Of a DNA stretch of 64,000 nt, positions 3,631 to 64,000 are shown in pieces (position 1 is the first letter of the stretch; each line of letters starts with the position of its first letter). A program made the translations under genes and the position numbers. This DNA comes from a virus (lineage: Duplodnaviria; Caudoviricetes). The stretch lies in IMG/VR virus record IMGVR_UViG_3300010347_002030. The stretch is one strand, 5' to 3'. Under the pieces are notes generated by a model that was not told the origin of the DNA, ran no database searches, and saw only the letters and a program-made list of their open reading frames with translations.

Positions 3631-3638
3631 TATTTATA
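3631..3638 (+). promoter_or_regulatory. Late-promoter motif TATTTATA for the tail sheath gene
   Basis: 39 nt upstream of ATG 3678; SD-like AAAGGA also present. Confidence 0.7.
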
Positions 3639-7003: not shown

Positions 7004-7074
7004 CGTTGTTTCTATATAAAAAGTTGCTTTTCTTCTTTTATATGATATTTATCCATAAAATCAGTAGTATTGTT

Positions 7075-15883: not shown

Positions 15884-16007
15884 AATAAACTTTTGGTTCG
15901 TATAGGGATAAGTATTATACAAAATAACCAATCCATCAAGATTTTTTAACTTTCAAAGTATTTATACGATGATGAGCATTTTTAACAATCAACTATAGGA
16001 CCGAAAT

Positions 16008-48136: not shown

Positions 48137-48641
48137 CCTTGGGTCTTGATGTATTCCAAAATGGTTTGGGTAGATACGTCTCCCGTAGAGCAGACAAAGT
48201 ATCCGTCCGACCAGAATACGTGTTTCTTCCAGAAGTGTTGTTTCAACTCATTGGAATGATGCTTCCATATATTCCAAGTCGTCTCTTGTTTGAGATATTG
48301 GACTAAGGAAGTTGGAGACAGAGTAGGTGGAACATCAACTAACAGATGGATGTGGTCTTTATCGGTATTCATCATATCCACAATCACATCATTCTTTTTA
48401 CAAACATCCATACAGAACTGCTTAATATCGTCGTCAATTGCTCCTGTGAGGATTGCCTTACGATATTTCACTACAAATACGATGTGTAGTTTCAACAGAT
48501 ACTTACATCGGTTCTTTGTATGGTATTTCTTTATTCTACTCATACATATATTCCAGAAGTAGAAAGAGTATAACTATTTTCACCTTTCTTTACTGGTCGC
48601 ATTCATCCCATCCGCTGAAAGCAGATGGGTTTTCTGCTCCC
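46925..48641 (-). mobile_element. IS200/IS605-family element (tnpA+tnpB)
   Basis: Left end follows TTGAC with hairpin cccatctgct-ttc-agcggatggg; right-end hairpin acccacctgct-tg-agcgggtgggt followed by AGTTCA; boundary uncertain by 1 nt. Confidence 0.88.
48133..48543 (-). CDS. tnpA: Y1 HUH transposase TnpA
   Basis: HIVFVVKYRK, DKDHIHLL, FWSDGYF, EYIKTQ. Confidence 0.95.
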   Translation of the reverse strand: MSRIKKYHTKNRCKYLLKLHIVFVVKYRKAILTGAIDDDIKQFCMDVCKKNDVIVDMMNTDKDHIHLLVDVPPTLSPTSLVQYLKQETTWNIWKHHSNELKQHFWKKHVFWSDGYFVCSTGDVSTQTILEYIKTQG

Positions 48642-48733: not shown

Positions 48734-50008
48734 TTAACTCGTGGTTTGATTCTGATTGTTGTTATAAAGTTGTTCTACGTACCAAGGATCGTCAGCGTTG
48801 ATAAGTCGGTTTTGAATTGGATTGATGAATCGAATATCGAGGGTGAAAATATCGAATTCCATGATGCTTCCTTGTTCACCGGAATCTTGAATCATCAAAG
48901 GAAGCTGTTTAATGACTTCCATGTGTTGTTGAGTGAACTGTTTCCCGTCAAATGTAACAACAATATCGTTGTCTGGCGTTGCAGAAATAGGTTTCACCCG
49001 ACGATACATTTCAAATTTTGAAATTTCTTGTTGTCCTTCGATATAATCCTGTAGGATTGCCATCGGTAAGTCGGCGTAGATAGTATCACACCAAGGTTCA
49101 ATGAACTGCAATAATTGAACCGGACAGTTTTTCACGACGAATCCGATGTTATAACGTGGGTGAACGATTGGAAGCATGTTTTGATCGTGTAGAACATCCA
49201 TATGCCACTTTCTCCACCAGTCACGGAACTTGATTTGGCGAAGCTTTGTGTATTCTTCCGAATCGGCGGAACGTTTCCATACTTGTCCATTTCCAATTGG
49301 GATTTCTTGAACTATTTTGATTCCATCTTTGAATCGGCTTCCTCGGCAAGTCATGTGATATACAAAAGCATCCCTTGCTTGGAGGAGTTCGTATCCTTTG
49401 AGAAGAAAGCGATTGAACAAATCTGAATCTTCTAGTTCCATTGGTGCAAATACTCGTTTATCGTGGCCACCAATAGCAAAAAAATCCTCGACATACATAA
49501 TCCATGGAGCAAAAATTCCTTTTGTGGTTATTCCTGCATTGGTTTTTTGCTCTTGTTCAATGAAACGAAGAAACAAATCCTCTTTGAAATCTTCGGGTTC
49601 CATTCCCATGTCGATGACATATTTTTCTGGTCCCGGTGGATGTAATGGTGGTTCTATTCTTGTTCCGGAAATGACTCTACCACGCCGCAAATGTCTCATC
49701 ATTCGTTCTACATAATTTGGTCCTGCAATCATGTCGGCATGAAAAATTCCGAAGACTTCGTTGGCGGCCATTTTGGCTCCAAGGTCATATAAAACAGTGT
49801 GTCCAACCCGTTCTGGTCCTTCATTGCGAGAAACTTTCACATTTTGATCTTGTGTTTTTTGGTTTAACATCCAATCCCATGTGCCGTCTGTCGATGCATC
49901 ATCCAATAGAATGACTTCCACATCTGGGCCAAGATGCTTACGAATACTATTGTAGGCAAACCTTACATACTTAAGATTGTTCCGTGATGGTATAACGAGT
50001 GTTAGCAT
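48734..50008 (-). CDS. Glycosyltransferase family 2
   Basis: LVIPSRN, LLDDASTDGT, FHADM, EDSDLF, FVYH; ATG 50008 preferred. Confidence 0.9.
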   Translation of the reverse strand: MLTLVIPSRNNLKYVRFAYNSIRKHLGPDVEVILLDDASTDGTWDWMLNQKTQDQNVKVSRNEGPERVGHTVLYDLGAKMAANEVFGIFHADMIAGPNYVERMMRHLRRGRVISGTRIEPPLHPPGPEKYVIDMGMEPEDFKEDLFLRFIEQEQKTNAGITTKGIFAPWIMYVEDFFAIGGHDKRVFAPMELEDSDLFNRFLLKGYELLQARDAFVYHMTCRGSRFKDGIKIVQEIPIGNGQVWKRSADSEEYTKLRQIKFRDWWRKWHMDVLHDQNMLPIVHPRYNIGFVVKNCPVQLLQFIEPWCDTIYADLPMAILQDYIEGQQEISKFEMYRRVKPISATPDNDIVVTFDGKQFTQQHMEVIKQLPLMIQDSGEQGSIMEFDIFTLDIRFINPIQNRLINADDPWYVEQLYNNNQNQTTS

Positions 50009-50946
50009 ATGGATGTAAACCTCCATTTGTAATGGTCCACGATAGATGGGAGAGCTTTGTCGAATTCTTGATGATTAGTCCATCCTGTGGATTTCAGTTT
50101 TGAACAATCAACACTATAACGAACATCCTGTCCCGCTCTGGTGAAATTGAAATCACAATAAGGTGTGATATCATCACTATCCGTTAGAAGTTTTACCACT
50201 TTCTGGGCGACGACGAGGTTGGATTCTTCATAGTTCCCACCAATGTTGAATATTTGATTTCTTAAATCGTTTTTGATGATGTGAATAATAGCGTCGGCGG
50301 TATCGGCGACATGAAGCCATGTTCTTCTTGGAGTTCCTTGATTATGAAGTGGGAATTTTCCTTTTTGGATTACAGCTTTGCATATGCATGGAATGAGTTT
50401 CTCCGGATATTGATAGCATCCATAGTTGTTCGTTGGACGAACTATTGTTGCCTCGATTCCGTAAGTTCTCGACCAAGCAGAAATCAACATATCAGCCGCC
50501 GCTTTGGTTGCAGAATATGGATTACTTGGTTTCAGAGCATCTGTTTCCGTATGAGATCCTTCAACGATGTCTCCATAAACCTCATCGGTACTGAACTGGA
50601 GTAGTAAAGGTTTCCATTTTGATTTCGTAATTAAGTTAAGGAGGTTGTGAACTCCATATACATTTGAATCAATGAATTCTTTACTGGAAGCAATGGAATT
50701 ATCTACATGAGTTTCTGCGGCAGTATTGATGATTATGTCACAAGGCCATAGGGTATTCAGATCTTTGATATCTTTTTCCCAAAACTGAAAATTTGGTTCC
50801 CGACTAAAGACTTCTAACATACCAAGATTGGCAGCATAGGTTTTCTTGTCCACGCCATGAACAAACCATCCCTGATCTAGACATTTTTGAACGATGTGGA
50901 CCCCAATAAACCCGAGACACCCCGTCACATAAACTATTTTTTTCAT
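50002..50946 (-). CDS. rfbB: dTDP-glucose 4,6-dehydratase-like
   Basis: TGCLGFIG, AAETHVDNSI, STDEVYG, YSATK, NNYG..QYPEKLIP, R.GQDVRYS. Confidence 0.9.
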   Translation of the reverse strand: MKKIVYVTGCLGFIGVHIVQKCLDQGWFVHGVDKKTYAANLGMLEVFSREPNFQFWEKDIKDLNTLWPCDIIINTAAETHVDNSIASSKEFIDSNVYGVHNLLNLITKSKWKPLLLQFSTDEVYGDIVEGSHTETDALKPSNPYSATKAAADMLISAWSRTYGIEATIVRPTNNYGCYQYPEKLIPCICKAVIQKGKFPLHNQGTPRRTWLHVADTADAIIHIIKNDLRNQIFNIGGNYEESNLVVAQKVVKLLTDSDDITPYCDFNFTRAGQDVRYSVDCSKLKSTGWTNHQEFDKALPSIVDHYKWRFTSIC

Positions 50947-52277
50947 GTTACTTTTTTGAAGAATTCGTTAACTACTTCTTGAATATAAGTAGTTTGTTCT
51001 TTTGTAATAACTGGACTTGTCCCTAGGAAAAATGTATCTGTTGTAGCTTTTGTGGCATTCGGAAAGAGTTTTTTTATCTTGTTGTAATCGCCATAAGCCG
51101 GAACAAGATCTGAATAGGCTGGTTGAAGCAGTAAGTTTCCACCGAAATAGTTTCTTGTCTGGATTTTTCTATCTTCAAGAAACCGGCAAAACTCAGAACG
51201 TTTAAAGGGGGCTCCATCTTTTACCGTTAATGGAAACGCAAACCATGAAACGTCGGCGTGTTCAATTGCTTTGGGTAGAATAAAGTGTTCTTCGTATTGT
51301 TTGAAAATTGCCAGCAATGCCTCATAGTTTGCCTTTCTTTTAGCAATGATGTCTGGGAGTTTATCCAATTGGGATAGTCCCATAGCGCATTGTAATTCAA
51401 TCGGTTTGAGGTTGTATCCAATTTCCTCATAAACATATTTGTGATCGAAAATTTCCTCTGGGAAAGCTGGAATCCAATTTTTGAAACGACACCCACAAGA
51501 GCCTTTAGTTGACAGATTCGCTGCTTTACCAACACAATAGCATCCTCTTCCCCATTCACGAAGGCTACGAACAACTTTTTCTTGTTCGGCGGTGGAACAA
51601 ACAACAAAACCGCCTTCTCCCATTGTAATATGGTGGGCGGGATAGAAGGAATAGGATGACATTGCACCAAAGGCTCCCAATGGACGACCTCGGTAGGTTG
51701 AACCTAATGCATCACAACAGTCTTCAAGAAAAACAAGTTTATGAGTTGCCACAATATTCATAATGGCATCCATTTCTGGAGGATTTCCCAGAACATGAGC
51801 GAACATGATACCTTTTGCTTGAAAGTAATAAGCAGCCATGTCGGCTTGTTCTGGATTTAAGTTTAAGGTGTCAAGCTCTATATCAACAAACGCAGGAGTA
51901 AACCCATTTTGTAAAATCGGGTTAAGAGTTGTTGGAAAGCCTGCTACCGGAGTTATGATATGACCACGTTTAAGTCCCCATAACCGCTTTGACTTAAGAG
52001 CAGCAACCATTAAGAGATTTGAACTGGATCCACTGTTGGTTACGACACCATACGAGCGGTTAACCAATAAGGGAAATCGTTTTTCAAACTCTACTGCTTT
52101 ATTGCCGAGAACAAGCCATTCATCTAATAATACCGAAATGGCAGAAAGGTATTCTTCATTAGTGTAATATGGGCCAGCATATTGTACCCAATCCTTCCCC
52201 GGTGTCCATTTTTTTGTGGTGTGCTTTTCATTAAAGTACTTGGCAACAAGATCTAAAATAAGGTCTTTGGTGGTCAT
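50943..52277 (-). CDS. rfbH: CDP-4-keto-6-deoxyglucose 3-dehydrase (E1, RfbH/DdhC)
   Basis: NSGSSSNL, EDCCDALG, SFYPAHHITMGEGG (His instead of Schiff-base Lys), WGRGCYC...C.C cluster ligands, FDHKY. Confidence 0.9.
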   Translation of the reverse strand: MTTKDLILDLVAKYFNEKHTTKKWTPGKDWVQYAGPYYTNEEYLSAISVLLDEWLVLGNKAVEFEKRFPLLVNRSYGVVTNSGSSSNLLMVAALKSKRLWGLKRGHIITPVAGFPTTLNPILQNGFTPAFVDIELDTLNLNPEQADMAAYYFQAKGIMFAHVLGNPPEMDAIMNIVATHKLVFLEDCCDALGSTYRGRPLGAFGAMSSYSFYPAHHITMGEGGFVVCSTAEQEKVVRSLREWGRGCYCVGKAANLSTKGSCGCRFKNWIPAFPEEIFDHKYVYEEIGYNLKPIELQCAMGLSQLDKLPDIIAKRKANYEALLAIFKQYEEHFILPKAIEHADVSWFAFPLTVKDGAPFKRSEFCRFLEDRKIQTRNYFGGNLLLQPAYSDLVPAYGDYNKIKKLFPNATKATTDTFFLGTSPVITKEQTTYIQEVVNEFFKKVT

Positions 52278-52963
52278 GATGTAAAGATAGCAATGAAATC
52301 TTTGAGTTTTTGAGCATCTCTGGCTCGATCTCCTTCTAGACTTTTGTAATAAGCTCCGATATCGCCAGCAACCTCGATGCGTTTTTGATATGTTTCATCC
52401 TGTGGAGCTTTTCCGACGGCGGGGTGTATGTGCTCAATAATTAGATTTGGCATATAACATTTTCTTCCTATTCTTTCAGCCAAATCTGTTATCCACTCAT
52501 CGGTATAGGCAGACGCCAGTTTTGGTGGAAGTACATATCCAACCAACTCAACCCAATACCGATGAATGAATCCATGGGTTCCAATTCTGCCCCTTTGAAA
52601 ACCGTCTTCTCCATATACGAACAAAATTCTGTCTTCATATTTGGCAAATTCTTGTTCAACGATAACATCCCATTGTGGCGTCTTAAACACAATATCATCG
52701 GCACCAAAGAAAAAGATGTCGCCTTGAGCAAGCTTGCCGAGTTCGTTATACATTTGGCTACCAATGAGTTTGTTTCCTTGAACAGCATTTACGTTAAGAC
52801 GCTCGGCGGCATATTGTAAAGCTGGAATAGACTCTTCGTCATCGTCGTCTATGTAAACTAATAATTCAACGTTTTGGACATTGCTTACGGTATTGATGAT
52901 ACTGTCCACAAAACGAATGACGTTCTGTGGACGTTTTCTGGTTGGGGCTATAATACTAATCAT
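52274..52963 (-). CDS. Glycosyltransferase family 2-like
   Basis: ISIIAPTRKRP, YIDDDD, GADDIVF, YTDEW, IIEHIH. Confidence 0.8.
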   Translation of the reverse strand: MISIIAPTRKRPQNVIRFVDSIINTVSNVQNVELLVYIDDDDEESIPALQYAAERLNVNAVQGNKLIGSQMYNELGKLAQGDIFFFGADDIVFKTPQWDVIVEQEFAKYEDRILFVYGEDGFQRGRIGTHGFIHRYWVELVGYVLPPKLASAYTDEWITDLAERIGRKCYMPNLIIEHIHPAVGKAPQDETYQKRIEVAGDIGAYYKSLEGDRARDAQKLKDFIAIFTS

Positions 52964-53892
52964 ACAATAGTTTCAGATTGATATTTTTCGTAATCAAATA
53001 GGTTAGGAGTTAAAAAGAGTTTTTCTTTTATAAATGGACCTAAACCGGGGTCTAGTGCAAACCCGTTTTCGTCGAATTTGGATGGGTCGTGGTCAAAAAT
53101 GTGTGCCCATTCGTCATACCCGAATCCAGTTGAACGGGCTCGTGGGTCATTTAAAATATCTAACATATCTAACCCAAACATAAGATTGTTCCAGTATCCC
53201 TTGGGACCAAGGTGGTCAAAGCCAGATGTGGCTCCATCAGCCGATTTAGTATGATAGATGACCAAATCTTTCACGACAACCCACTGTAGTTTGAGAGCAG
53301 CAAGCATAAAGGAAAATACTGATTCTGTACAGTATGCTTTGAAAATATCCGGAATTAAATGTCCGTAATATTGCAGCACACGGTCATCGTAAAGATTGAA
53401 ATGGAGGTTAATGCACTTACCCACCGGAACAATGAAATCTTGACCAACCCAGACATGATCGGTGGGAAGACCGAACCAATTTTCCTTGCCCATGTCCGTA
53501 TTTGTTTGGAGTGTCACGATACCATATTTACCTGTGACAAATCGCTTGTGCATTTCTTGTAGAGCATGGGTATGATTTTGAACATCCACACCAGAATCAA
53601 CGTAAAGGTACCCATCGTATCTACCCTTTCGTTTAATGATTTCCTGAACAGCTTTGTTGAAAGTAATATTGACTGGTTGAATCTCGTCCATGAAGCAATA
53701 CATGAGACGTTTTCCGAATTTCTTTTGAAGTCCTGTTTTTGTGGCGTTGTGCATAGCACATCCACTTACAACGGTATCGAAAGAAAATCCATTGGTAGTT
53801 TGTTTAAGCAGACTTTCAAGATGTTTGATATAGAGAAACAAATTGTTTTTCTGAATCTCACACGTATTGAATATGACGAGATATTTTTTCAT
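52960..53892 (-). CDS. Divergent GT-A-like protein (paralogue of 63553..64000)
   Basis: TFNKAV...YLYVDSGVD; PDIFKAYCTES shared with the paralogue. Confidence 0.55.
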   Translation of the reverse strand: MKKYLVIFNTCEIQKNNLFLYIKHLESLLKQTTNGFSFDTVVSGCAMHNATKTGLQKKFGKRLMYCFMDEIQPVNITFNKAVQEIIKRKGRYDGYLYVDSGVDVQNHTHALQEMHKRFVTGKYGIVTLQTNTDMGKENWFGLPTDHVWVGQDFIVPVGKCINLHFNLYDDRVLQYYGHLIPDIFKAYCTESVFSFMLAALKLQWVVVKDLVIYHTKSADGATSGFDHLGPKGYWNNLMFGLDMLDILNDPRARSTGFGYDEWAHIFDHDPSKFDENGFALDPGLGPFIKEKLFLTPNLFDYEKYQSETIV

Positions 53893-55415
53893 TAATCTCC
53901 GAGAAGTTTTCTCTTCAATTTGATTTTAGCCATTTCTTCAACGTTTCGTCGTTGCTGTAATCCAAACTTACGTTCAACCAAATTTAGATAGGCCGGATTT
54001 GTGAAATAAGTATGCCACGCATTGTCACGAAATGCCAGCACTTCGGCAGATGTGCAATACTTCGTTGGAAGCGGTTCTGACTCATAACTCAAGAAAGCGT
54101 ATCCTTCTGGAGTGGATGGTAATTTCCAACCTTCTCGGATAGCACGAACATATAGAGGACTTCCCGGTAAGGCCATACAAGGATACATATTGGTTGTCTC
54201 GGCGTTGATTTCTAATGCAAGATCCAACGTTGCTTGCATACTTTCTCTGGTATCATCCGGAAAACCAAAAATGAAGTTACTGATAACATTGATATCGGCA
54301 GCTTGGATGTCTTTACACACCTGACGGATATTAACATTCTGGAAGCTTCCTTTACTGACTTCGGTTCTGATTTCTTGCTTGGCGGCTTCGATGCCTAAAG
54401 CAAGCCAATTGATTCCGGCTTTTTTGAATAATTCGAGATATTGTTTACGAACTGTGTCGATACGGGCATAAGCCCACATGTTAAATTTCATCTTTCGGTC
54501 TATGATGTTATTCAATAAGGGTTCAAAGTAACGTTTGTCGAGAAAAAACATTTCATCAGACAGACGTACCGTTTCTACACCATAAGTGGCAAGTTTTTCA
54601 AACTCTTTGGTAATAAAGTTCGGAGACCAGAACCGCATAATGCGACTATCCGCAGAAGAAATTCCATCGGAATTATCTTTACGGTTGAGAATGTTAATCA
54701 TACAGAAATCACAGCCAAATCGGCATCCTAAGCTGGTATAAATAGCCGCAAATGGTGTTCTACGAGGTTTATCGAAGTTGACATGCCAAAAGTGAGCCCG
54801 ATATAAATCAAATGGTTTTTGTTTGTACGGGAGTAAATCCCACGCATATCCCGGTAAGTCTTGGTCCATCTTGTCATTTGGAACCACGAATTCTGGGGGA
54901 TTAAGAACACTAAGGCCATTTGGTTTCCAACCTATTCCCCTGACTTTCTGTAAATCTTCCGATGTTTTCAGATCGGTTAGAAGAAGATTGCGTAAGGCAT
55001 AAACACCTTCGTTAAGGAGTACAAAGTCAACAAACGGTTTGGCTAAGACTTCTTTAGGTAGAGCACTTACATGTGAACCAACCATGCAAATAGGAAGACT
55101 TGGTAAAGCTTCCTTAAGTTTCTCGCCAGTGCGGTAGGCTCCAATCATCATGGTTGTTCCAGAGTTTGGGTTCTGTCCATACATCACGAAAACTACCAAT
55201 CGTGGTTTTAACTCTTCTACACGACGAACTACCTGTTCGTCGGTTAATCGTTCAGCATTGGCGTCTAGAATGCCAACTTTAAATCCAACTGAACGACAAC
55301 TTTGGGCTAGTAGTAAAGACCACGTTGGTGTTTCAATAGCACTAAATTCGTCGGCAAGTGCTTGATAAGCTTCCTTGGCGGTATTTGGTTCGATGAATAA
55401 TACGTCTAAGTTCAT
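53892..55415 (-). CDS. B12-binding radical SAM protein (class B-like)
   Basis: N-terminal cobalamin-binding domain (ILDANAE, GSHVSALP), TSLGCRFGCDFC, LGIE, FIFGFPDDT, PGSPLY; ATGA overlap at 55415. Confidence 0.9.
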   Translation of the reverse strand: MNLDVLFIEPNTAKEAYQALADEFSAIETPTWSLLLAQSCRSVGFKVGILDANAERLTDEQVVRRVEELKPRLVVFVMYGQNPNSGTTMMIGAYRTGEKLKEALPSLPICMVGSHVSALPKEVLAKPFVDFVLLNEGVYALRNLLLTDLKTSEDLQKVRGIGWKPNGLSVLNPPEFVVPNDKMDQDLPGYAWDLLPYKQKPFDLYRAHFWHVNFDKPRRTPFAAIYTSLGCRFGCDFCMINILNRKDNSDGISSADSRIMRFWSPNFITKEFEKLATYGVETVRLSDEMFFLDKRYFEPLLNNIIDRKMKFNMWAYARIDTVRKQYLELFKKAGINWLALGIEAAKQEIRTEVSKGSFQNVNIRQVCKDIQAADINVISNFIFGFPDDTRESMQATLDLALEINAETTNMYPCMALPGSPLYVRAIREGWKLPSTPEGYAFLSYESEPLPTKYCTSAEVLAFRDNAWHTYFTNPAYLNLVERKFGLQQRRNVEEMAKIKLKRKLLGD

Positions 55416-55960
55416 GAGTCCCTTTTTGATACAATTGGTTCTTTTACCGGCCAAAATACATTATATTTTGGGTCATTCCATTTAACATGAAGTTGCTGTT
55501 CAATTGGAACGTATGTGTCTGAAAGTTTGTAACTAAAAATACACGTTTCAGATAAACAAAGATGTGCGTTTACACACCCAGATGGAATAAGTATTTGAGT
55601 CCTATTTCTTTCGTTCAAATAAAATGTTTCCACCTTGTCTTTTGTTTCGCCTTCACGTAGATCGATAACAACGAGTTGGATCGAACCTTGGATACATTGA
55701 ACCAGTTTCCATGCTTTGGCGTCTCCGTGAAATCCTCTAAGCACATCCTTTTTTGAAAAAGAAAAGGAATCCACATTGAACGTCAATTTTGGTAAATTCA
55801 GTTTGTTAAGCATCTCCAGCATTTCAATACTGCTGAACGTTTGAACGTTTTCTCCCCGGTGGTCATAAAATACGTTTGGGTGAATGACAACCAATCCGTT
55901 TATTTTTTTGGATTCTTCAAATCGCATGTTACATCTCTCTACAAATCGTATTTTAGACAT
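55412..55960 (-). CDS. rfbC: dTDP-4-dehydrorhamnose 3,5-epimerase-like cupin
   Basis: DHRG, SKKDVLRGFH, KLVQC, IDLR, WNDP...WP...SKRD; start may be ATG 55927. Confidence 0.88.
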   Translation of the reverse strand: MSKIRFVERCNMRFEESKKINGLVVIHPNVFYDHRGENVQTFSSIEMLEMLNKLNLPKLTFNVDSFSFSKKDVLRGFHGDAKAWKLVQCIQGSIQLVVIDLREGETKDKVETFYLNERNRTQILIPSGCVNAHLCLSETCIFSYKLSDTYVPIEQQLHVKWNDPKYNVFWPVKEPIVSKRDS

Positions 55961-56915: not shown

Positions 56916-57877
56916 TGATCCCAGAAACGATACAATTCTTCTATGAAGTAATCTACGCTCTTGTCAAACGGTATGACAGGCTTCCATCCTGTATCTCTGG
57001 TAAATTTTTCCATACTTGGAATTTGAACTGTGATGTCTGACGGTCGTAGAAGGGCAGGATTCTGATAGGTTTTCACGGAGACATTCATTTTATTAATTAG
57101 CATCTCCAAGAAGTCGCCAATTCGGATTCCAACAGTTCCGCCTATATTGTAAACCTCCCCCATCTTACATTTTTGCGTTGCAATCCAATAAGCTTCTGCG
57201 GCTTCACGAACATCAATGAACGTTCTAACGGTTTCCAAGTTTCCATGTTCAAGCACTTTTCGTGTTCCATGCTTGATTTCCAAAATCTGTTTTGCAAACG
57301 CCGTAGCGAACAAGTCTGCTCTACGAGCGTTTAGATAAGTGAACATTCTCGTTCGAACTATGTTCATTCCATAGTTTAGGAAATACACATAACCTAGATT
57401 GTCCTGAGCCATTTTAGAGACAGCATAGGGGTTAATTGGTTTGAGAGGACAATCTTCGGTAATGGGAATGTGTTCTGGTCCAACCGCTCCATACACTTCT
57501 GACGTGCTGCAAATCTGAATGATTGGATTATACCCACTCTTGTTTTTTAAAAGTCTTATTGCTTCTAAGAGGTTCAACGTTATGTTAACGTTGTTTGTAA
57601 CTACTTCATGTGGGTAATCAAACGATTTTCTGACATTGGCCATTGAAGCAATGTGCATTATAATATCCGGACGGTCTTCATCGAAGAGTCTGTAAACAGA
57701 TAAAGAATCGTTCAAATCTAGATATCGTATTTGTAGTTTGTCTTTGATATGAGCGATATTCTTTGATGGAGCGTGGGATCGAGTTGTTCCAATAACCGTG
57801 ACACCCACTTTTTCCAGTAGATATTCGGCCAAGTAACTTCCTCCGCTTCCAGTAATTCCGGTTATTAGAACTTTCAT
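56912..57877 (-). CDS. GDP-mannose 4,6-dehydratase-like SDR
   Basis: ITGITGSGGSYLAE, STSEVYG, PYAVSK, GNLETVRTFIDVR, LRPSD. Confidence 0.85.
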   Translation of the reverse strand: MKVLITGITGSGGSYLAEYLLEKVGVTVIGTTRSHAPSKNIAHIKDKLQIRYLDLNDSLSVYRLFDEDRPDIIMHIASMANVRKSFDYPHEVVTNNVNITLNLLEAIRLLKNKSGYNPIIQICSTSEVYGAVGPEHIPITEDCPLKPINPYAVSKMAQDNLGYVYFLNYGMNIVRTRMFTYLNARRADLFATAFAKQILEIKHGTRKVLEHGNLETVRTFIDVREAAEAYWIATQKCKMGEVYNIGGTVGIRIGDFLEMLINKMNVSVKTYQNPALLRPSDITVQIPSMEKFTRDTGWKPVIPFDKSVDYFIEELYRFWDQ

Positions 57878-57903
57878 GATACTGATTTCAATAATATTGA
57901 TGA

Positions 57904-57932
57904 ACTATACACTTTTTGTAAAGGAATAGCAA
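57904..57932 (-). promoter_or_regulatory. Sigma70-like internal promoter in the sugar cluster
   Basis: TTGCTA-17 nt-TATAGT in a 61-nt intergenic gap of the otherwise tightly packed cluster. Confidence 0.5.
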
Positions 57933-57938
57933 CATATT

Positions 57939-59150
57939 TTATTTTTCTTTTGATAAGATGTCGTGCGCTCTTTGTAGAATTGAAGAACTAGAATCACTTT
58001 TCTCCCCTCCTACGTTGTAGATCATTTTTATACCTAAACGTTGACATGTTTCTTGTTCTTTCGAAGGGGCACTAGTGGGCTTTCTATCTCCTCCGTTACA
58101 AAATATAGATGGACGAACTATTTCTAACGTTTTCGAAACTGTCCCATCTTCATCTATTGCTATAATAGTCTCGTCCACTCCTCGAATGTTTCGGACAATA
58201 TATTCTCGGCTTTTTTCATTTACGACGACAGGAGTGGATTTCATTGCCGCTTGTTTGTCTGAGTTTACGATTACCACAAGATACCCCCCGAGTTTTCTCG
58301 CTTCGGTTATATAGTCTATGTGACCTTTGTGAAGAATTTGAAAGTATCCACTTACTGCTACAACCGGAGTGTATCTTTTTGTAATTTTCCTACAGATATC
58401 CAATAGACGTTCTGTGGAAAGAGTAGATTTGATGAGACTGACATTTTTATCAATCCATTGAATGTTTCCTTTAACATAACCAAGAGCGTTATTTTTTAGG
58501 TCCAACGAAGCATTTCCGATTCCTCGACGGGAAGTAAAAAATAAATCTTTTCCGGTTAATGCACATTTTCCTCCTTGTTCCAAAAAAAGAACATTCAGAT
58601 CGTCAATTGATATGGAAAAGTCAAGGTTTCTGTCTTTTGCTCTTCTTTTTATCTCTGTAAACGTCTTTTTTCCGATATAGCCACACCCCTTGAAGTTTTT
58701 GTGATGATTGAGGGAGTACATGGGAATTCCATAGAATGGTTTAGGCATGTGTCGGTATTGATGTATGCTTATGCACCGATTTAGGAATTCGGATTGGGAA
58801 AGATTGTTTTTCATCCGATTCACGTCTTTATGAATCCATTGGAGGTTTCCTTTTACATAGCCCTGCCTTGAGTCGATTCTATCTAAAAAGGCATTTCCGA
58901 CCTCGAAATCAATGGGTTCTCCTGTAAAAACACACTTTCGGTCTTGTGAGAGATACAGTTCCTCCAATAATGAAATTGAAACGTCAAAGGTAATAAATCG
59001 AGTCTTTGCATTTCGCAGTAAGGAATGATAATAGTCCAACGGAATAAAATTTCCTCCCTCCCATCGGCTGTGCTCATGCCCCCGGCGAGTTCTTAGACAG
59101 CGTTTTAAGCATGTTTTTGTTCGTAAAATATTGGATTCTTGAATCATCAT
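57939..59150 (-). CDS. Fusion: tandem HNH-like nuclease repeats + cytidylyltransferase-like (RfaE-II/TagD/RibL) domain
   Basis: Two KC..TG...LD.....GYVKGN.QWI repeats; C-terminal VAVSGYFQILHKGHIDY...VIVNSD...FCNGGDR...KSDSSS. Confidence 0.8.
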   Translation of the reverse strand: MMIQESNILRTKTCLKRCLRTRRGHEHSRWEGGNFIPLDYYHSLLRNAKTRFITFDVSISLLEELYLSQDRKCVFTGEPIDFEVGNAFLDRIDSRQGYVKGNLQWIHKDVNRMKNNLSQSEFLNRCISIHQYRHMPKPFYGIPMYSLNHHKNFKGCGYIGKKTFTEIKRRAKDRNLDFSISIDDLNVLFLEQGGKCALTGKDLFFTSRRGIGNASLDLKNNALGYVKGNIQWIDKNVSLIKSTLSTERLLDICRKITKRYTPVVAVSGYFQILHKGHIDYITEARKLGGYLVVIVNSDKQAAMKSTPVVVNEKSREYIVRNIRGVDETIIAIDEDGTVSKTLEIVRPSIFCNGGDRKPTSAPSKEQETCQRLGIKMIYNVGGEKSDSSSSILQRAHDILSKEK

Positions 59151-60111
59151 TACCTCCGTTGTAAATTACTGATACGCCCGATTCCTCGAAACTAAATTCC
59201 AAAATGTTATTTGCGAATATGTCGTAGAGCTTTTGTTTTGTAATTGGATTACAGAGAACCAATATAAACCCACAACCGCCCGCACCTAAAAGTTTCCAAC
59301 CACAGGCACCCATACTACGAATTTCATCAATGATTTTGTTGATTTTTCCTGTCGTGATGAACGGGGATATTCGTTGTTTCTCTTCCCAAGTAGCTCTCAA
59401 CAACTTTCCGATGCCTTCGATGTCTTCATTCAAAAAATATCTATGAGCTTCTTTGGCTATTTGAAGGATAGCTGTTTTATCTTTGTGTTCATGCGATTTG
59501 GCAATACTGTTTTGTTCTCTTTGGTCGTTGGTGTAAATCAAAAGCATGGACTTTTGAAGCTCTTCTCGAAATTCCTTGGTTACAGCTAGTGGTTTTACAA
59601 GAAAGTTTCCATTGGGTTGAATTTCAATGGTATTCAATCCTCCATAAGCAGGCCAAATCTGGTCTTGGATACCACCAGCCTCTCGTAAAATAACACGTTC
59701 AATATGAATAGCTTCATAAGCAAGTTCTTTAGGAGAGATTTCTACTTTTCCGAATACTTTGTTTAAAAGGTAAAGCATTCCAACACAAAAAGATGAAGAG
59801 CCACCCAGTCCCGTTCTCGAAGGTACATCCGAAAATGAGTTGAATTCGATGGTTTGGTCAATGTTTCGATATTTTAGTATTTCTCGAATCAGTGGGTTGT
59901 GAATCTCGTCCCAATTCTTAACGATTTGTTGTTGAGAGTAAGTAATAATGCTCTCTTGTGGTAGAATGGGTGGGCGTTTACGCATGGAAAGGTACACATT
60001 CTTATCAATCGTCGTCCCAATAAGGAAAGAGCCATGTTGTTCGTAGAATTCTTTGTAGTCCGTGGAACCTCCAAAGAACGAAATTCTAAATGGTGCCTTG
60101 ACTATAATCAT
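59074..60111 (-). CDS. GHMP kinase, D-glycero-D-manno-heptose-7-phosphate kinase (HddA-like)
   Basis: APFRISFFGGSTD, PSRTGLGGSSS, GIQDQ...YGGLN, KLLGAGGCG. Confidence 0.88.
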   Translation of the reverse strand: MIIVKAPFRISFFGGSTDYKEFYEQHGSFLIGTTIDKNVYLSMRKRPPILPQESIITYSQQQIVKNWDEIHNPLIREILKYRNIDQTIEFNSFSDVPSRTGLGGSSSFCVGMLYLLNKVFGKVEISPKELAYEAIHIERVILREAGGIQDQIWPAYGGLNTIEIQPNGNFLVKPLAVTKEFREELQKSMLLIYTNDQREQNSIAKSHEHKDKTAILQIAKEAHRYFLNEDIEGIGKLLRATWEEKQRISPFITTGKINKIIDEIRSMGACGWKLLGAGGCGFILVLCNPITKQKLYDIFANNILEFSFEESGVSVIYNGGNDDSRIQYFTNKNMLKTLSKNSPGA

Positions 60112-60494
60112 TTCTGTGAGTCTCCTTTCCAGACCCGGTAACTGTCGGAATCTTCATGATGAGTAGAAACCTCAAATATTACTCCATCAGTATTAGCAAT
60201 AAGTTGGTGTGGTTGTCCCGGTCTCTGCCGAACAATATCACCTACATTCAATGTAACTTCGTGAACATCGGCATTCGTCGTGTCAATCCACCGATAGAGA
60301 AAAATTCCATTTTGGACATACCACGTTTCATCTTTATTCATGTGGTAATGCATTGAAAATTTACATCCCTGTTTGAAGATAAGCAATTTGCCGCAATAGA
60401 GATCATTATTTTCAATGATGAGTTCTTCGCCCCATCCCTTCGGAACTTTGCAACCATGGCAAACTTCTGGTTTGATGCATTCGTTATTTTTCAT
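60108..60494 (-). CDS. Cupin (sugar-phosphate isomerase-like)
   Basis: VPKGWGEE, SMHYHMNKDETWY, PGQPHQL, EVST. Confidence 0.8.
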   Translation of the reverse strand: MKNNECIKPEVCHGCKVPKGWGEELIIENNDLYCGKLLIFKQGCKFSMHYHMNKDETWYVQNGIFLYRWIDTTNADVHEVTLNVGDIVRQRPGQPHQLIANTDGVIFEVSTHHEDSDSYRVWKGDSQK

Positions 60495-61020
60495 TATAAA
60501 AATCTCCCCATTCTACTAGGATGGTTGATTTACCGTCCGTTCTCGTATAAGCCTTTTCGTAAGCAGGAAAAATCTGATCTGGTTCATCTAATCGAATAAT
60601 TTCGACGTTTGGAGCCATCAAGCGAAAAGCTTCTGTGTAATCTCCGACGTGCTGATGTTGTGGGTGAAGAGGACGTTCTGAACCAATCGATGTTCGGATG
60701 ATGACTTTCGGACGATATGGAATATCTGCCATACCGGGAATCTTATCCAAATGATTTACTATTTGGTTTGTAGCGAGCAAAAGAAAGTTCCATCTGGGAT
60801 AAATTGATATAGGAATTAGTCCCTTGAGCGATAAACCGATACTCATTCCCATTTGCATGTCTTCTGTAACTGGCATTTCCAATAACTTGGCTCTATCCAC
60901 GTCTTTTAATGTGTTTGTCATTGCTGTTCCGGCATATTCCACTGCTTGACCGAGGAACATTGTATTATCTTTTTGTCCTAGCCATGTCATGGCTCTTTTT
61001 AATTCGTCAAAGTATTTCAT
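60484..61020 (-). CDS. TPP-dependent E1 beta / transketolase pyrimidine-binding domain protein
   Basis: FLGQAV, EMPVTEDMQMGMSIG, NQIVNH, HPQHQH; lacks the usual C-terminal domain. Confidence 0.85.
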   Translation of the reverse strand: MKYFDELKRAMTWLGQKDNTMFLGQAVEYAGTAMTNTLKDVDRAKLLEMPVTEDMQMGMSIGLSLKGLIPISIYPRWNFLLLATNQIVNHLDKIPGMADIPYRPKVIIRTSIGSERPLHPQHQHVGDYTEAFRLMAPNVEIIRLDEPDQIFPAYEKAYTRTDGKSTILVEWGDFYNEK

Positions 61021-61775
61021 AAAATTACTCCATAACTACAATTTGGATTTTCTTGAATAAGATGTTTCATGAGTTTGACATATGTTTCCCCGTCAACGTA
61101 GTCATAAGTTCGAATACAGTTGTTTTCTCCGAACCAATTTTGAAACCAACAACTATGTGGAGAATAAATGTTTGGATTGTGATGTGGAACTTTTTTGTGA
61201 ATGTATGCACCGAGCCAATGGTCAACATAATGGTGTTTTAGAGACGGATTGAAAAAGATTCCATCAAATTTTTCCTCTACGGTTTTTCTAGATACGAGAG
61301 GAAAACTAATAACTGGATAGTTGTAATCAAAAGTTTCGTTGGTTACTCCAGTTGTCCACCTAGAGGACCAACAGGCGTTTGGAAGCCCTTCGTTGTTGTG
61401 GTTTCTTCGCATATTATCAAACCACCCACCACCCAAATTGTAAACTTGATATTCCGCTTCTTTGACTTCTTGGCTTTCAAGAAGAATTAATAAACGATTA
61501 ATGTCAATTTTTAGGATATTATCATCGACGGCCACTGCAATCCATTCTCCGGAGCAATGTTTGTACCCTTTATTAAAAGCATAAGTTGACCCACTTTCCT
61601 TGTCGTCCACTACTAATTTTATATTTGGCGTCTCTAGGTTTTCAACTTGATCTATAATATATTGAGGAGCACAAATAACAAATTCATGCTCATGTGGACC
61701 CAATGCTTCTATAAACCGCAAGCATTCAAAGCCGACGTTCAAATCTCGTTTTGTTGCTATTAAATAGGATATCAT
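61017..61775 (-). CDS. Glycosyltransferase family 2-like
   Basis: ISYLIAT, GSTYAFNKGY...GEWIAVAVDD, HHYVDHW. Confidence 0.7.
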   Translation of the reverse strand: MISYLIATKRDLNVGFECLRFIEALGPHEHEFVICAPQYIIDQVENLETPNIKLVVDDKESGSTYAFNKGYKHCSGEWIAVAVDDNILKIDINRLLILLESQEVKEAEYQVYNLGGGWFDNMRRNHNNEGLPNACWSSRWTTGVTNETFDYNYPVISFPLVSRKTVEEKFDGIFFNPSLKHHYVDHWLGAYIHKKVPHHNPNIYSPHSCWFQNWFGENNCIRTYDYVDGETYVKLMKHLIQENPNCSYGVIL

Positions 61776-62419
61776 TAGAATTGAATGCGTTCGCCTGTTC
61801 CGGCGTGTGGATATTTGGTTTCGTATTTGTAATAAATGATTTTTTCCAGTTTCATCGTCTTATCCGAAGAAGAATTTAACCAATCTGCATTTGGCTCGTT
61901 TGAGAGTTGAGAAACACCCCATGTTTTTCTGGTGTCAGTACAAACTGATTTGCCGTTATCTTCAATAATCCAAGTGATGGGTAAATCGAAGTTGACAGAA
62001 TATTTCCAGTTTTCGTGAAAAGTTCCTGTTTCCGAAGTCATATCACCGACGAAGCAATAAACATGCTCATCGAGCTTTTGGCGTTTAATGGCTAATGCTA
62101 CGCCATTGGCTATTGGAATGTTTCCGGCTACGATAGCAGAAGAAAAGATTCGGAATTCGGGATAGTTTAGAGCAATAGAACGACCTTTTTTGATATCCGT
62201 TAATAGTTGTTCTGGTGGAACGCCTTTAAGAAGACATTGATAGTGAGACCTCCAAGAGCAGAACACCCAATCCTGTGGCCGAATATCATCAAATATTCGG
62301 ATCATCTGTTCTTCATTGCCATAATACAGATGAACGGGGGCACGAATTTCTTTGTTTTTCCAAGCTTCGCAAACTCGTTCTTCGAAACCGATTAAGTCTT
62401 GAGGCGTAAACTTTTTCAT
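61775..62419 (-). CDS. TPP-dependent E1 alpha subunit-like
   Basis: APVHLYYGNE, SWRSHY, TPP motif GDMTSETG...EDN. Confidence 0.88.
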   Translation of the reverse strand: MKKFTPQDLIGFEERVCEAWKNKEIRAPVHLYYGNEEQMIRIFDDIRPQDWVFCSWRSHYQCLLKGVPPEQLLTDIKKGRSIALNYPEFRIFSSAIVAGNIPIANGVALAIKRQKLDEHVYCFVGDMTSETGTFHENWKYSVNFDLPITWIIEDNGKSVCTDTRKTWGVSQLSNEPNADWLNSSSDKTMKLEKIIYYKYETKYPHAGTGERIQF

Positions 62420-62425
62420 GACAAC

Positions 62426-62600
62426 TTATTTTCTATTTTTCCATCCTTTTGATTTTACTAAATATGAGTCGCTTAGTTTCATATTCTCTTGCCTAGTTAC
62501 AAACTCAAGATTGTCTATTCTATTGTTTGAAATATCATTGTCTTTGTGGTTTATTTCCATATTCTGGAGTCCATCGTGGATAAAGAAGGGCGATTTTCAT
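62426..62600 (-). pseudogene. Deletion scar: truncated gene start fused to an HNH endonuclease 3' remnant
   Basis: 62600-62535 MKIALLYPRWTPEYGNKPQRQ*; 62560-62426 MEINHKDNDISNNRIDNLEFVTRQEN...*. Confidence 0.65.
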
Positions 62601-63556
62601 TACTGATATAGGTTCTTACGTTTCATCCAATCAATCATGTACTTCGTCGGGTCTTTGAAATACTCCATGACAACATCCATGAAATATTGGCGTGCTGCCT
62701 TCCCTTTTTCAACTAGTTCTGAATGTGGAGTCTGGGCGATTTTAAGAAGTTCTTTGTCCAGATGTTCATCTCCCAGTGTTGGGTCAATTTTGTAAAGAAA
62801 ACTAGTATCGTAATCACCTTCTTCCATTACCATTTGTTCTCCGATGATTACTGGGACTCTAGCAAAGAAACAGGTTTCATAAAAACGAATTGTTACCGAA
62901 GATACACCTTCGGGACAAAGGGAAATTAGGTTACGATAAAGTGATTCGATATACGCACTGACAGCGGGACTATCAAGACCTTTTCTTCCACCCCAAGAGG
63001 TATTTAAGGTAAATTCGTGTTTGACCCCTATGCGTTTGAGAGACTCATAAGTTCTAACTCTGGTATTGATTGGATCTGGTTGGCCACGAAAACCAAACGA
63101 TATGTCTTCTGGAAATTCGATTTCACCGCAATCTGGGTTGTTTTTTAAAAATGCCAGTAAACTGCTCATATTGGGTCTTGCCATGATGGGTTGAACCCAA
63201 TGAGCATACTTTGTCGGAGCACAACTTTTAATGGTCTTGTTAAGAACCCATGGATGGGCTATTTGGGCTCCACCGCCATGTCCCGGTATTGCACACCAGT
63301 CTCCTTCAAGGTCGAGGATATGCCGATGTTCATTTCCCGGCATAAAGGTAAATGAATCTTTCAGAATAGGGTGTTGTGGATTATCTATGTTACCATCCGA
63401 CACTTGACCCATGTAAAAGAATTCTGCTTGGTCTGGGTCATCAACAACGGTGCAATGACGTTTGATTCCATCTTTACTGAATGGTGTCGAATCAACGTAT
63501 TCAGGAATCAAGTCCTGACTATGCACCCACCCGTGTTTGTAAATGTAGAGTTTCAT
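62600..63556 (-). CDS. Exostosin/GT47-like glycosyltransferase
   Basis: VDDPDQAEFFY, FGFRG, SLCPEG...RFYETCFFARVPVII. Confidence 0.75.
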   Translation of the reverse strand: MKLYIYKHGWVHSQDLIPEYVDSTPFSKDGIKRHCTVVDDPDQAEFFYMGQVSDGNIDNPQHPILKDSFTFMPGNEHRHILDLEGDWCAIPGHGGGAQIAHPWVLNKTIKSCAPTKYAHWVQPIMARPNMSSLLAFLKNNPDCGEIEFPEDISFGFRGQPDPINTRVRTYESLKRIGVKHEFTLNTSWGGRKGLDSPAVSAYIESLYRNLISLCPEGVSSVTIRFYETCFFARVPVIIGEQMVMEEGDYDTSFLYKIDPTLGDEHLDKELLKIAQTPHSELVEKGKAARQYFMDVVMEYFKDPTKYMIDWMKRKNLYQ

Positions 63557-64000
63557 TCAATGGTTGTTTCGCAGGGGATTTTGTTGTAATCCAGAACCGA
63601 TGGCTTCAAAAAGAGATTGTCACGAATAAAATCTTTGAGTTTCGGATTTTTTGGAAATCCTTCCTCATCATAAAGAGAGGGATCATGCATCATAATGTTT
63701 CCACATTCTTCATAACCCATTCCTAATGCTTTGGCTTCGTCGGTTATGAGGCAAGTATGAACGTCCACTCCATTGTAGAGGTTATTCCATGTTTTTCCAA
63801 AAGGACCGTGTTCATCAAATGCAACTGTTCTTGCTTTAATGGGATCACCATAGCCTTCCATTGGGCGGTCAATAGACTTATAGTGTTCCAATACAATATT
63901 TGGAACCACTACCCATTTAAGCCTCAAAGCTGCGTTCAAAAACGAAAATGTCGATTCGGTGCAATGGGCTTTGAAGATATCCGGCATCAAACCACCATAT
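63553..64000 (-). CDS. Divergent GT-like protein, C-terminal part (truncated by window)
   Basis: PDIFKAHCTESTFSF...WNNL...GYEE...HDP paralogous to 52960..53892. Confidence 0.6.
   Translation of the reverse strand, partial: YGGLMPDIFKAHCTESTFSFLNAALRLKWVVVPNIVLEHYKSIDRPMEGYGDPIKARTVAFDEHGPFGKTWNNLYNGVDVHTCLITDEAKALGMGYEECGNIMMHDPSLYDEEGFPKNPKLKDFIRDNLFLKPSVLDYNKIPCETTIE

Follow-up and report, generated by a model that had tools for sequence, protein, structure and literature searches.

A phage gene island with predicted pathways for heptose and branched deoxyhexose sugars

The virus record IMGVR_UViG_3300010347_002030 (Duplodnaviria; Caudoviricetes) contains, at positions 48734-64000 of the 64,000-nucleotide stretch that was analysed as a whole (the window), an island of 18 co-oriented minus-strand open reading frames (ORFs) which is read as a single tightly coupled operon. 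Our explanation, to which we give as a whole a probability of about one half, is a genuine phage-encoded glycan operon of soluble proteins, which would supply at least two unusual nucleotide sugars together with the transferases that use them. The identities of the genes, the conserved catalytic residues, the phage origin and the conserved locus are observations. An earlier note, made from the letters of the window, had proposed a synthesis of rare sugars by enzymes of the phage itself, along with several transferases; homology, synteny and conserved catalytic residues support this proposal.

Genes were called by Pfam and NCBIfam profile searches of the ORFs of the window, and sequence matches in the PDB were used for the enzyme subfamilies. 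Nearly every call in the earlier list of enzymes was upheld by the profile searches, and where at least 16 contiguous minus-strand genes with mostly overlapping junctions had been counted there are 18, all at the place given. Most junctions are overlaps of 4 nt or 1 nt, with gaps only at 57878-57938 (61 nt) and 62420-62599 (180 nt). The relatives used for comparison are the contigs G001, L049, L050-L057, L002, L005 and L011; the sequence of the window ends at 64000. Abbreviations in the list are GT, glycosyltransferase; NDP, CDP, GDP and dTDP, nucleoside, cytidine, guanosine and deoxythymidine diphosphate; PMP, pyridoxamine phosphate; SAM, S-adenosylmethionine; SDR, short-chain dehydrogenase/reductase; ThDP, thiamine diphosphate; pTM, predicted template-modelling score.

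48734-50026, minus: GT2a, a GT2 that is extended by 300 residues at its C terminus and forms the fixed end of the island (PF00535, 64.6 bits; 33% ortholog at the same end position in G001)
50002-50946, minus: RmlB-like NDP-glucose 4,6-dehydratase (TIGR01181, 284.5 bits, cut-off 365; the CDP-glucose model reaches 72.8 bits)
50943-52277, minus: RfbH/DdhC, E1-type PMP- and [2Fe-2S]-dependent NDP-4-keto-6-deoxyhexose 3-dehydrase (NF011936, 444.1 bits, cut-off 423)
52274-52963, minus: GT2b, GT2-like (PF00535, 18.2 bits, sub-threshold)
52960-53892, minus: GT-A-fold glycosyltransferase-like protein, 310 residues (no Pfam or NCBIfam match; Atlas model with pTM 0.79)
53892-55454, minus: cobalamin-dependent class B radical SAM enzyme (B12-binding 54.1 bits, Radical_SAM 62.5 bits)
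55412-55960, minus: cupin of the RmlC fold, GDP-4-keto-heptose C3/C5-epimerase-like (PDB relatives in the text)
55953-56915, minus: 6vo6-like SDR (PDB 6vo6, 6e-101, 340 bits, 307 aligned residues, about 55-60% identity as read off the alignment)
56912-57877, minus: SDR resembling GDP-heptose 4,6-dehydratase and Rmd-type 4-reductase (PDB 7us5, 6.5e-57; E. coli GMD, 2e-29)
57939-59150, minus: two tandem repeats of about 110 residues joined to a sugar-phosphate nucleotidyltransferase of the cytidylyltransferase fold (CTP_transf_like, 43.8 bits, residues 267-357)
59074-60111, minus: GHMP sugar kinase, HddA-like, of the heptose-7-phosphate 1-kinase type (GHMP_kinases_N/C)
60108-60494, minus: cupin of 128 residues, sugar isomerase/epimerase-like (Cupin_2, 30.3 bits; weak Lyx_isomer and MannoseP_isomer matches)
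60484-61020, minus: E1b, short pyrimidine-binding E1-beta-like subunit of 178 residues that lacks the C-terminal domain (PF02779, 31.9 bits)
61017-61775, minus: GT2c, GT2-like, between E1a and E1b (PF00535, 22.6 bits, E 1e-4, 0.7 bit under the cut-off)
61775-62419, minus: E1a, short ThDP-binding subunit of 214 residues, E1-alpha/transketolase-N-like (PF00676, 61 bits; TIGR03182, 86.8 bits)
62600-63556, minus: GT47/RXYLT1-like protein (RXYLT1_C 22.8 bits and Exostosin 16.5 bits, both sub-threshold)
63553-64000, minus: C-terminal part of a GT-A-like gene that starts beyond the window (47% identity over 147 residues to 52960-53892; no Pfam match)

Predicted sugar pathways

The substrates, the order of the steps and the nucleotide carrier given in this section, like the acceptor discussed below, are proposals built on the nearest characterised enzymes. 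In the case of the deoxyhexose, the proposal starts from RfbH, which had been singled out in the earlier note as DdhC on account of its diagnostic histidine. This call was confirmed, as the protein passes the equivalog cut-off, has His in place of Lys and contains the Fe-S cysteines. Its nearest structure is the Yersinia E1 entry 3bcx (3.6e-94), with ColD at about 1e-47, and its segment SFYPAHH aligns with His220 of E1, exactly the residue at which the H220K mutant 3bb8 differs. An alignment of 18 sequences (the window, 16 viral and one from a bacterial metagenome-assembled genome, MAG) shows no variation at His215, Cys188, Cys246, Cys248 or Cys261, the cysteines being spaced C-X57-C-X-C-X12-C. 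The corresponding cysteines of E1 itself are reported as C193, C251, C253 and C261 (Agnihotri et al. 2004), so that the last spacing would be X7 there and X12 here. Because the histidine and all four cysteines are invariant and 3bcx is the nearest structure, the sequence assigns RfbH to the Fe-S, PMP-dependent E1 type and not to the ColD type. Out of 16 viral contigs, 15 have RfbH and RmlB side by side, with identities of 55-65%, and a scan of bacterial genomes for RfbH gave one match of 54%, in an uncultured gammaproteobacterial MAG.

The RmlB-like enzyme would carry out the 4,6-dehydration of NDP-glucose taken from the host, after which RfbH would remove the hydroxyl at C3, drawing its electrons from a reductase of the host. 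The split ThDP enzyme, formed by E1a and E1b, would then attach an acyl branch to the 4-keto carbon, in the manner of AviB1/AviB2 or YerE. A further modification may come from the radical SAM enzyme, whose top-scoring NCBIfam models, HpnJ and BchE, stay far under their cut-offs. C-methylation is the commonest chemistry of the B12 radical SAM class and could be the reaction here.

E1a retains an intact ThDP motif (GDM...EDN) that aligns with the alpha subunit of human pyruvate dehydrogenase E1, and it belongs to a family of 6648 proteins, mostly metagenomic, the 120 best of which have lengths of 197-228 residues. E1b has orthologs of 56-59% identity that adjoin E1a in three contigs (L002, L011 and L049). 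In L002 the orthologous pair (38% and 56%) directly follows RmlB and precedes an SDR, and in L011 the orthologs (47% and 58%) stand beside RmlB and RfbH. A more distant ThDP pair is found in L005 and G001, likewise after RmlB and before an SDR, while in the cyanophages P-TIM68 and S-SM2 the two parts are fused (41% and 37%). Two-subunit ThDP enzymes of the E1-alpha/beta type have been proposed as branching enzymes in avilamycin (AviB1/AviB2) and paulomycin (Pau11/Pau12) biosynthesis (PMC4753412), and in the YerE/YerF route the substrate of YerE is a 4-keto-3,6-dideoxy intermediate (PMC9306805). The pair in the window is encoded by separate subunit genes, has kept the ThDP motif and lies in the same operon as RmlB and RfbH. 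This makes a sugar-branching enzyme, following the logic of YerE/YerF with an architecture of the AviB1/AviB2 type, the probable and preferred reading, since every context of the ThDP genes holds SDRs that could make a 4-keto sugar. The branched-chain sugar suggested in the earlier note fits this split pair and its place beside RmlB and RfbH in other phage contigs.

The split enzyme could instead be a minimal transketolase-like step of the heptose route, which supplies or extends a sugar phosphate and has no part in branching the product of E1. We regard this as possible and as the second choice. It would agree with the gene order in the window (E1a, GT2c, E1b, cupin, kinase, nucleotidyltransferase), with the match of the G001 alpha subunit to Transketolase_N and with P-TIM68, where the fused ThDP gene sits with a kinase, a nucleotidyltransferase, a cupin (46%) and a phosphoheptose isomerase, none of these genes being annotated as RfbH. 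On the other hand, the pairs in L002 and L011 adjoin RmlB in contigs neither of which matches the kinase, the cupin or the nucleotidyltransferase of the window. As SDRs for 4-keto sugars are present in all contexts, branching fits them all and a supply role fits only some.

The heptose module is proposed to run from 60494 down to 55412, and its logic is taken from the scheme for the GDP-heptose of the Campylobacter jejuni capsule, in which GmhB lies outside the capsule cluster (PMC10680097). A heptose had been suggested earlier from the HddA-like kinase, and this suggestion is now strengthened, as the kinase, the C4-dehydrogenase-like, the epimerase-like and the dehydratase/reductase-like proteins are all nearest to solved enzymes of heptose pathways. 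For the kinase, the best NCBIfam model is HddA at 124.7 bits, far under the cut-off of 600, and its best PDB relatives are 3k85 and 4n3o, both named heptose kinases, and 4usk, a putative sugar kinase; among its best solved relatives is an entry which its enzyme name, through PMC10680097, places in Campylobacter. In the three adjacent tailoring genes, enzymes of heptose pathways outscore hexose enzymes in the PDB matches. The eight best relatives of the RmlC-fold protein include 8dcl, 8dak, 8db5 and 8dco, which are named GDP-4-keto-heptose 3- or 3,5-epimerases, as well as 7m14 (3e-32 to 4e-28), with true dTDP RmlC proteins at 9e-21 or worse. The proteins listed earlier as RmlC-like, Gmd-like and a second SDR thus have the GDP-heptose enzymes of Campylobacter as their nearest relatives, ahead of enzymes for rhamnose or fucose. 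The best match of the 6vo6-like SDR in deposited phage genomes is 34%, so it has no close counterpart there. 6vo6 is presumably Cj1427, the NAD-dependent C4-dehydrogenase of GDP-heptose (Huddleston et al. 2020). In the Gmd-like SDR, the alignment of the active site did not separate dehydratase from reductase.

The nucleotidyltransferase matches domain II of RfaE (72.5 bits) and the PDB entry 3glv. Its N-terminal repeats (58401-59150) are 38% identical to each other (E 3e-23), and the fusion to the enzyme is kept in full length in L049 at 59% identity. Pfam gave no match for the repeats, which leaves an endonuclease-domain reading of them unsupported; the tandem repeat itself is real. A free-standing copy of 184 residues lies in L049 at 19336-19890, between the Gmd-like and the 6vo6-like genes. 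Between the nucleotidyltransferase ORF and the kinase gene there is an overlap of 77 nt, and translation from a TTG at residue 250 could yield the enzyme domain by itself. The small cupin at 60108-60494 has a 79% ortholog in L049 and gave no sequence match in the PDB.

According to this scheme, the kinase would phosphorylate a heptose phosphate at C1, and the cytidylyltransferase-fold enzyme would activate the product, with isomerase and phosphatase coming from the host. The 6vo6-like SDR would then oxidise C4, the RmlC-fold enzyme would epimerise C3, C5 or both, and the 7us5/Rmd-like SDR would either reduce C4 or remove the 6-hydroxyl by 4,6-dehydration.

Phage origin and a variable island

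Outside the island, the window encodes a tail sheath of 1086 residues, a tail tube, a T4-type baseplate protein, a DnaB-type helicase, a fragment of a family A polymerase, RecA, a 5'-3' exonuclease, a ribonucleotide reductase and a gp32-like protein. Judged by the helicase, the closest phages in culture are Microcystis phage Mel-JY01 and Flavobacterium phage immuto (identity about 40%), and the order of exonuclease, helicase and ribonucleotide reductase is identical in the window and immuto. The earlier description of the genome as T4-like therefore holds loosely, in view of the gp32-like, baseplate, sheath and tube genes on one side and of Mel-JY01 and immuto as nearest cultured phages on the other. 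No tRNA genes were found in the window, scans for sigma-70-like promoters and terminators stayed at chance level, and megablast of the island and of the core region against deposited phages gave no match.

The case named in the earlier note as fatal to its claim, that the island is host DNA mis-joined to the phage contig, was tested by composition, codon usage and collinearity and is close to refuted. In this form, or as a very recent unadapted acquisition beside an insertion sequence (IS), it could draw on enzymes that are bacterial in type and on an IS200/IS605 element exactly at the end of the island. The composition is nevertheless uniform, with a GC content of 0.385-0.404 that is flat over island and flanks. 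The codon usage of the island correlates with that of the core genes at 0.916, compared with 0.939 between the two halves of the core, and the GC content at third codon positions is 0.353 versus 0.360. The contig G001 (IMG/VR, 78.6 kb; 27% complete according to CheckV, implying a genome of about 290 kb) shares with the window a collinear stretch, 40-70% identical, that runs from the sheath gene to the island, and it carries a glycan island at the same locus, where the junction between GT2a and the flank has no IS. The GT2b protein of the window itself is on record from five contigs of three sources, the longest of 157,793 bp. Viral contigs in IMG/VR as long as 368 kb carry orthologs, and the transferase families are virus-dominated. 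GC content, codon usage, the collinearity of G001 and the five contigs with GT2b together make an origin from mis-joined host DNA very unlikely. An exact 44-mer from the end of the window had no match among viral or metagenome contigs.

Comparison of the relatives shows an island with fixed ends and a swappable middle, a pattern that is expected of a surface structure under diversifying selection. L049, which is identical with L050, a viral contig of IMG/VR (24.4 kb), has orthologs of 55-83% identity in nearly the order of the window (GT47-like, GT-A paralogue, E1a, E1b, GT2c, cupin, kinase, nucleotidyltransferase, Gmd-like and 6vo6-like). The G001 island instead has GT10-, GT11- and GT32-like genes and four methyltransferases in its middle, with no match to the heptose-module genes of the window. 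An upstream block is common to L049 and G001 and consists of a PD-(D/E)XK nuclease, a tail-tube paralogue, a GT4 of 506-513 residues, a dUTPase-like gene, a protein of about 470 residues and a GT2; most of it turns up again in seven distinct viral contigs, including one of 368,758 bp. The GT4 also matches the Pfam model for GT4 in conflict systems (29.7 bits in G001). The dUTPase-like gene (261-279 residues; L024 3247-4086, minus strand, and L049 3181-3966) is conserved between the GT4 and the protein of about 470 residues at the upstream end of the island, and its domain match covers about 40 residues near 165-200.

The island is also a sink for selfish DNA, as seen from the IS element and the HNH remnant among the features below, from a second TnpB and a NUMOD3 gene in L049, and from split GT4 genes.

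46574-46918, minus: small hydrophobic flank protein, conserved after the island (Kyte-Doolittle maximum 2.35; G001 counterpart 59% identical, with 2 predicted segments)
46922-48543, minus: IS200/IS605 element with TnpA (136 residues) and TnpB (404 residues) (Y1_Tnp, 124 bits; OrfB_IS605; Cas12f1-like TNB domain)
62429-62596, minus: remnant of an HNH homing endonuclease (PF13392 HNH_3, 40.3 bits, cut-off 24.8, profile positions 18-45 of 46, stop codons at both sides)

The IS200/IS605 element is placed exactly between GT2a, the last gene of the island, and the small hydrophobic flank gene, outside the sugar pathway; at the same junction in G001 the flank-gene ortholog directly follows that of GT2a at a distance of 5 nt. 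Other copies of TnpB lie in the middle of the L049 island (44% identity) and near the island in L053/L054 (38%). The HNH_3 remnant is located in the 180-nt gap that separates E1a from the GT47-like gene. The GT4 matches come in two pieces in L053 (8001-10631, with a 1.1-kb gap), L056 (4835-6254) and L057 (1251-2685), which suggests an insertion or a split gene.

Transferases and the candidate acceptor

The six GT-like proteins of the island would assemble a hetero-oligosaccharide in the cytoplasm. As a count, the earlier estimate of about six is fair, with one firm member (GT2a, which passes the Pfam cut-off) and five weaker ones. Among the homologues of GT2b, 11 of 43 carry a precomputed PF00535, and GT2c has a 40% ortholog in L049; single-sequence AlphaFold models of the two, with a predicted local distance difference test of 42.9 and 34.4, respectively, were too poor for a comparison of folds. 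The nearest Atlas clusters of the GT47-like protein, which has a 68% ortholog in L049, score 0.97-0.98 and are virus-dominated, with PF03016 in at most 92% of their members. The Atlas model of the protein encoded at 52960-53892 reaches template-modelling scores of 0.64-0.67 with bacterial GT2 clusters, its nearest clusters being viral. This protein and its truncated counterpart at the end of the window are the two paralogous divergent GT-like genes noticed earlier, and their identity of 47% bears this out. A further ORF of 218 residues (1840-2496, minus strand), among plus-strand structural genes, gave a weak sub-threshold match to Anp1, a GT62-type mannan polymerase, and may also be a transferase.

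Hydropathy analysis (19-residue window, threshold 1.6) gave no convincing membrane segment in the island proteins of the window (18), G001 (24) or L049 (22). No multi-pass protein that could serve as initiating phosphoglycosyltransferase, flippase, polymerase, ABC exporter or Wzx/Wzy is present in these three islands, and the search for a flippase beyond the window that the earlier note had called for thus gave none in the relatives. A cytoplasmic acceptor is favoured because no initiating transferase, flippase, polymerase or exporter was seen. The leading candidate is a protein of the phage particle, for example of the sheath or tube, to which we give a little less than an even chance, the other readings sharing the rest. 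The particle leads on weak evidence.

Two observations point to the tail. The first is a divergent paralogue of the tail tube, 25-35% identical to the tube encoded at 16008-16499, which in relatives stands 0.5-3 kb upstream of the conserved GT4 at the end of the island and was found for G001, L049, L051 and L053/54 at the following loci.

L049, 1108-1545: tail-tube paralogue
L024, 6257-6754, minus: tail-tube paralogue
L051, 860-1336: tail-tube paralogue
L053, 6417-6863: tail-tube paralogue

The second is the motif [ST]GS, which occurs 6 times in the sheath of the window (1.3 expected) and 10 times in that of G001 (1.5 expected), numbers that none of 500 shuffles reached, while almost every other protein has none or one. 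The sites lie mostly in an insertion of the sheath, five of the six in the window being at residues 163-450. The sheath gene spans 3678-6938 on the plus strand, and the best sheath profile matches residues 717-1082 alone. The Ser/Thr-rich insertions in fibre and sheath that had been pointed out earlier are in this way weakly borne out, with [ST]GS enriched in the insertion of the sheath. An ORF of 276 residues (546-1376, plus strand) has 3 such sites where 0.37 are expected. Two large ORFs of the structural region (7006-8583, plus, and 14327-15931, minus) contain DUF7487, and the second is opposite in strand to its neighbours.

Several findings weigh against the proposal, whether in its pathways or in its acceptor. 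In the profile scans of 48734-64000 there is no gene of the ferredoxin-reductase type for E3 (DdhD/AscD), and the window has neither a glucose-1-phosphate nucleotidyltransferase nor a YerF-like reductase. GmhA isomerase and GmhB phosphatase are both absent from the profile scans of the window, so that the host would have to supply them. A guanylyltransferase of the HddC type (NTP_transferase fold) is missing from the island, where the sole nucleotidyltransferase has the cytidylyltransferase fold of RfaE domain II. The kinase, the RmlB-like protein, the nucleotidyltransferase, the radical SAM enzyme and the ThDP subunits are all under equivalog cut-offs, and the company kept by the fused ThDP gene of P-TIM68 does not include RfbH. 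As for the acceptor, the observations on the tube paralogue and on [ST]GS are few, partly post hoc and related by descent, and the island lies about 20 kb from the structural genes, separated from them by the replication module. The late-type motif TATTTATA occurs 18 times in the window (3.2 expected), nearly always on the plus strand and just before structural or replication genes (for example at 3631, 8596, 9308, 12286, 15959, 19285 and 21805), and it is absent from the intergenic gaps of the island, where the sole copy lies inside the radical SAM ORF (54737-54744).

The sugars and peripheral transferases could alternatively feed the assembly of O-antigen, capsule or S-layer by the host, remodelling its envelope so as to block superinfection or to alter recognition. 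This is the standard interpretation of the clusters in P-SSM2, S-SCSM1 and S-SCSM2R (PMC12801897), and it would agree with closest characterised enzymes that all come from bacterial lipopolysaccharide (LPS) or capsule pathways and with the small membrane protein encoded by the conserved flank gene. Transferases acting on undecaprenyl-linked acceptors are, moreover, often peripheral and without membrane segments. The islands of the window, G001 and L049 are, however, devoid of the initiating phosphoglycosyltransferase, flippase, polymerase, ABC exporter or ligase of such a pathway, flippases and polymerases of the host would have to accept a foreign and lineage-variable unit, and the phage, lytic and large by its looks, would have little time for a turnover of the surface. 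We consider envelope remodelling possible but less likely than the particle.

Hypermodification of the phage DNA, with mono- to trisaccharides on a hydroxymethylated or hydroxylated pyrimidine as an escape from restriction and CRISPR, appears improbable. Phage clusters are known that place mono-, di- and trisaccharides including heptose on 5-hydroxymethylcytosine, one of which combines a kinase/phosphatase, a cytidylyltransferase and a GT (bioRxiv 10.1101/2023.12.21.572611), and the island has a kinase and a cytidylyltransferase-fold enzyme as well as, in the conserved upstream flank of relatives, the dUTPase-like gene. Yet no hydroxymethylase of the thymidylate-synthase family was found among the scanned ORFs of the window or in the 78.6 kb of G001, each of which is part of a genome; the earlier note, too, had seen no base hydroxymethylase, and the look beyond the window that it called for gave none in G001. 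A search for TET/JBP gave no match in the ORFs of the window or in G001 and was equally silent in all control genomes, and is thus uninformative. Six or more transferases together with branched and dideoxy sugars exceed any described DNA glycan, and no transferase of the window was identified as GT-B or similar to the beta-GT of T4.

Returning to the particle, a fuller model would have a self-contained cytoplasmic system coat the contractile tail of a giant phage, on the insertion domains of the sheath, on a tube paralogue or on both, with a lineage-variable hetero-oligosaccharide of modified heptose and C-branched 3,6-dideoxyhexose at sites of the [ST]GS type, with the ThDP enzyme as founder of a branching family of 6648 proteins and a host that is Gram-negative or cyanobacterial. 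Taken as a whole, this model is speculative and unlikely to be right in all its parts.

Comparison with known systems

DNA-glycan clusters (Pyle et al., bioRxiv 10.1101/2023.12.21.572611) resemble the island in their sugar-activating kinase, cytidylyltransferase and GTs and in having heptose among their sugars. They are, however, built on a cytosine methyltransferase with a 5-methylcytosine dioxygenase, or on a hydroxymethylase, none of which was found in the scanned ORFs of the window.

The GDP-heptose pathway of C. jejuni provides the best solved relatives of four genes, namely the kinase and the C4-dehydrogenase-like, C3/C5-epimerase and dehydratase-like genes, and the phosphatase lies outside the cluster in both systems (PMC10680097). 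The island differs in the absence of GmhA, in a cytidylyltransferase fold in place of HddC-like activation, and in having neither a C4-reductase of the GDP-fucose-synthase type nor capsule export genes. With the Yersinia pathway for CDP-3,6-dideoxyhexoses and yersiniose, the island shares a 4,6-dehydratase and an E1 with histidine and Fe-S cluster, which together lead to the substrate of YerE. Here the dehydratase is nearer to the dTDP than to the CDP type, and E3 and a YerF-like reductase are lacking in the window; relatives of the island have an SDR after the beta subunit, in a YerF-like position. The ThDP subunits of the island (214 and 178 residues) are much shorter than ordinary E1 subunits. 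Notable in the island are an E1-type deoxygenase without its usual reductase and a short, split ThDP enzyme whose family, abundant in metagenomic data, has yet to be given a reaction. As its tailoring enzymes are close to solved relatives (down to 6e-101 for 6vo6), reconstitution in vitro is realistic.

The mechanism favoured for the island is that of mycobacteriophages of the Che8 type, in which soluble phage GTs glycosylate capsid and tail-tube subunits in the cytoplasm (Freeman et al. 2023, as cited in PMC12619734 and PMC12801897). The Che8 type has one to few GTs beside the structural genes and uses host sugars, whereas the island has at least six GTs and sugar pathways away from the structural module. 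If the virion is the acceptor, particle glycosylation would extend from mycobacteriophages to giant environmental phages, with a bearing on phage-host recognition, on the evasion of defence and on phage antigenicity.

Large phage islands of nucleotide-sugar enzymes and GTs have already been published or deposited, as in P-SSM2, S-SCSM1, S-SCSM2R, P-TIM68 and S-SM2. In large cyanomyoviruses, the clusters of P-SSM2, S-SCSM1 and S-SCSM2R (13 GTs) are given a putative role in the synthesis and modification of LPS or cell wall (PMC12801897), and moraphages have core groups of GTs (PMC12801897, PMC12619734). Such blocks recur among large aquatic phages. Like the island, the cyanomyovirus clusters belong to large lytic aquatic myoviruses and combine many soluble GTs with nucleotide-sugar enzymes. 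P-TIM68 shares with it the ThDP enzyme (41% and 37%), the cupin (46%) and the nucleotidyltransferase (25%), and the neighbours of these shared genes are a kinase, a heptose isomerase, epimerases and GTs; the kinase is annotated there as a carbohydrate kinase, where the island has a GHMP kinase. The island differs in belonging to another lineage and in its E1-type RfbH, its homologue of 6vo6, its ThDP enzyme that is split and not fused, and its B12 radical SAM enzyme, which makes it a well-resolved example of such a block outside the cyanomyoviruses.

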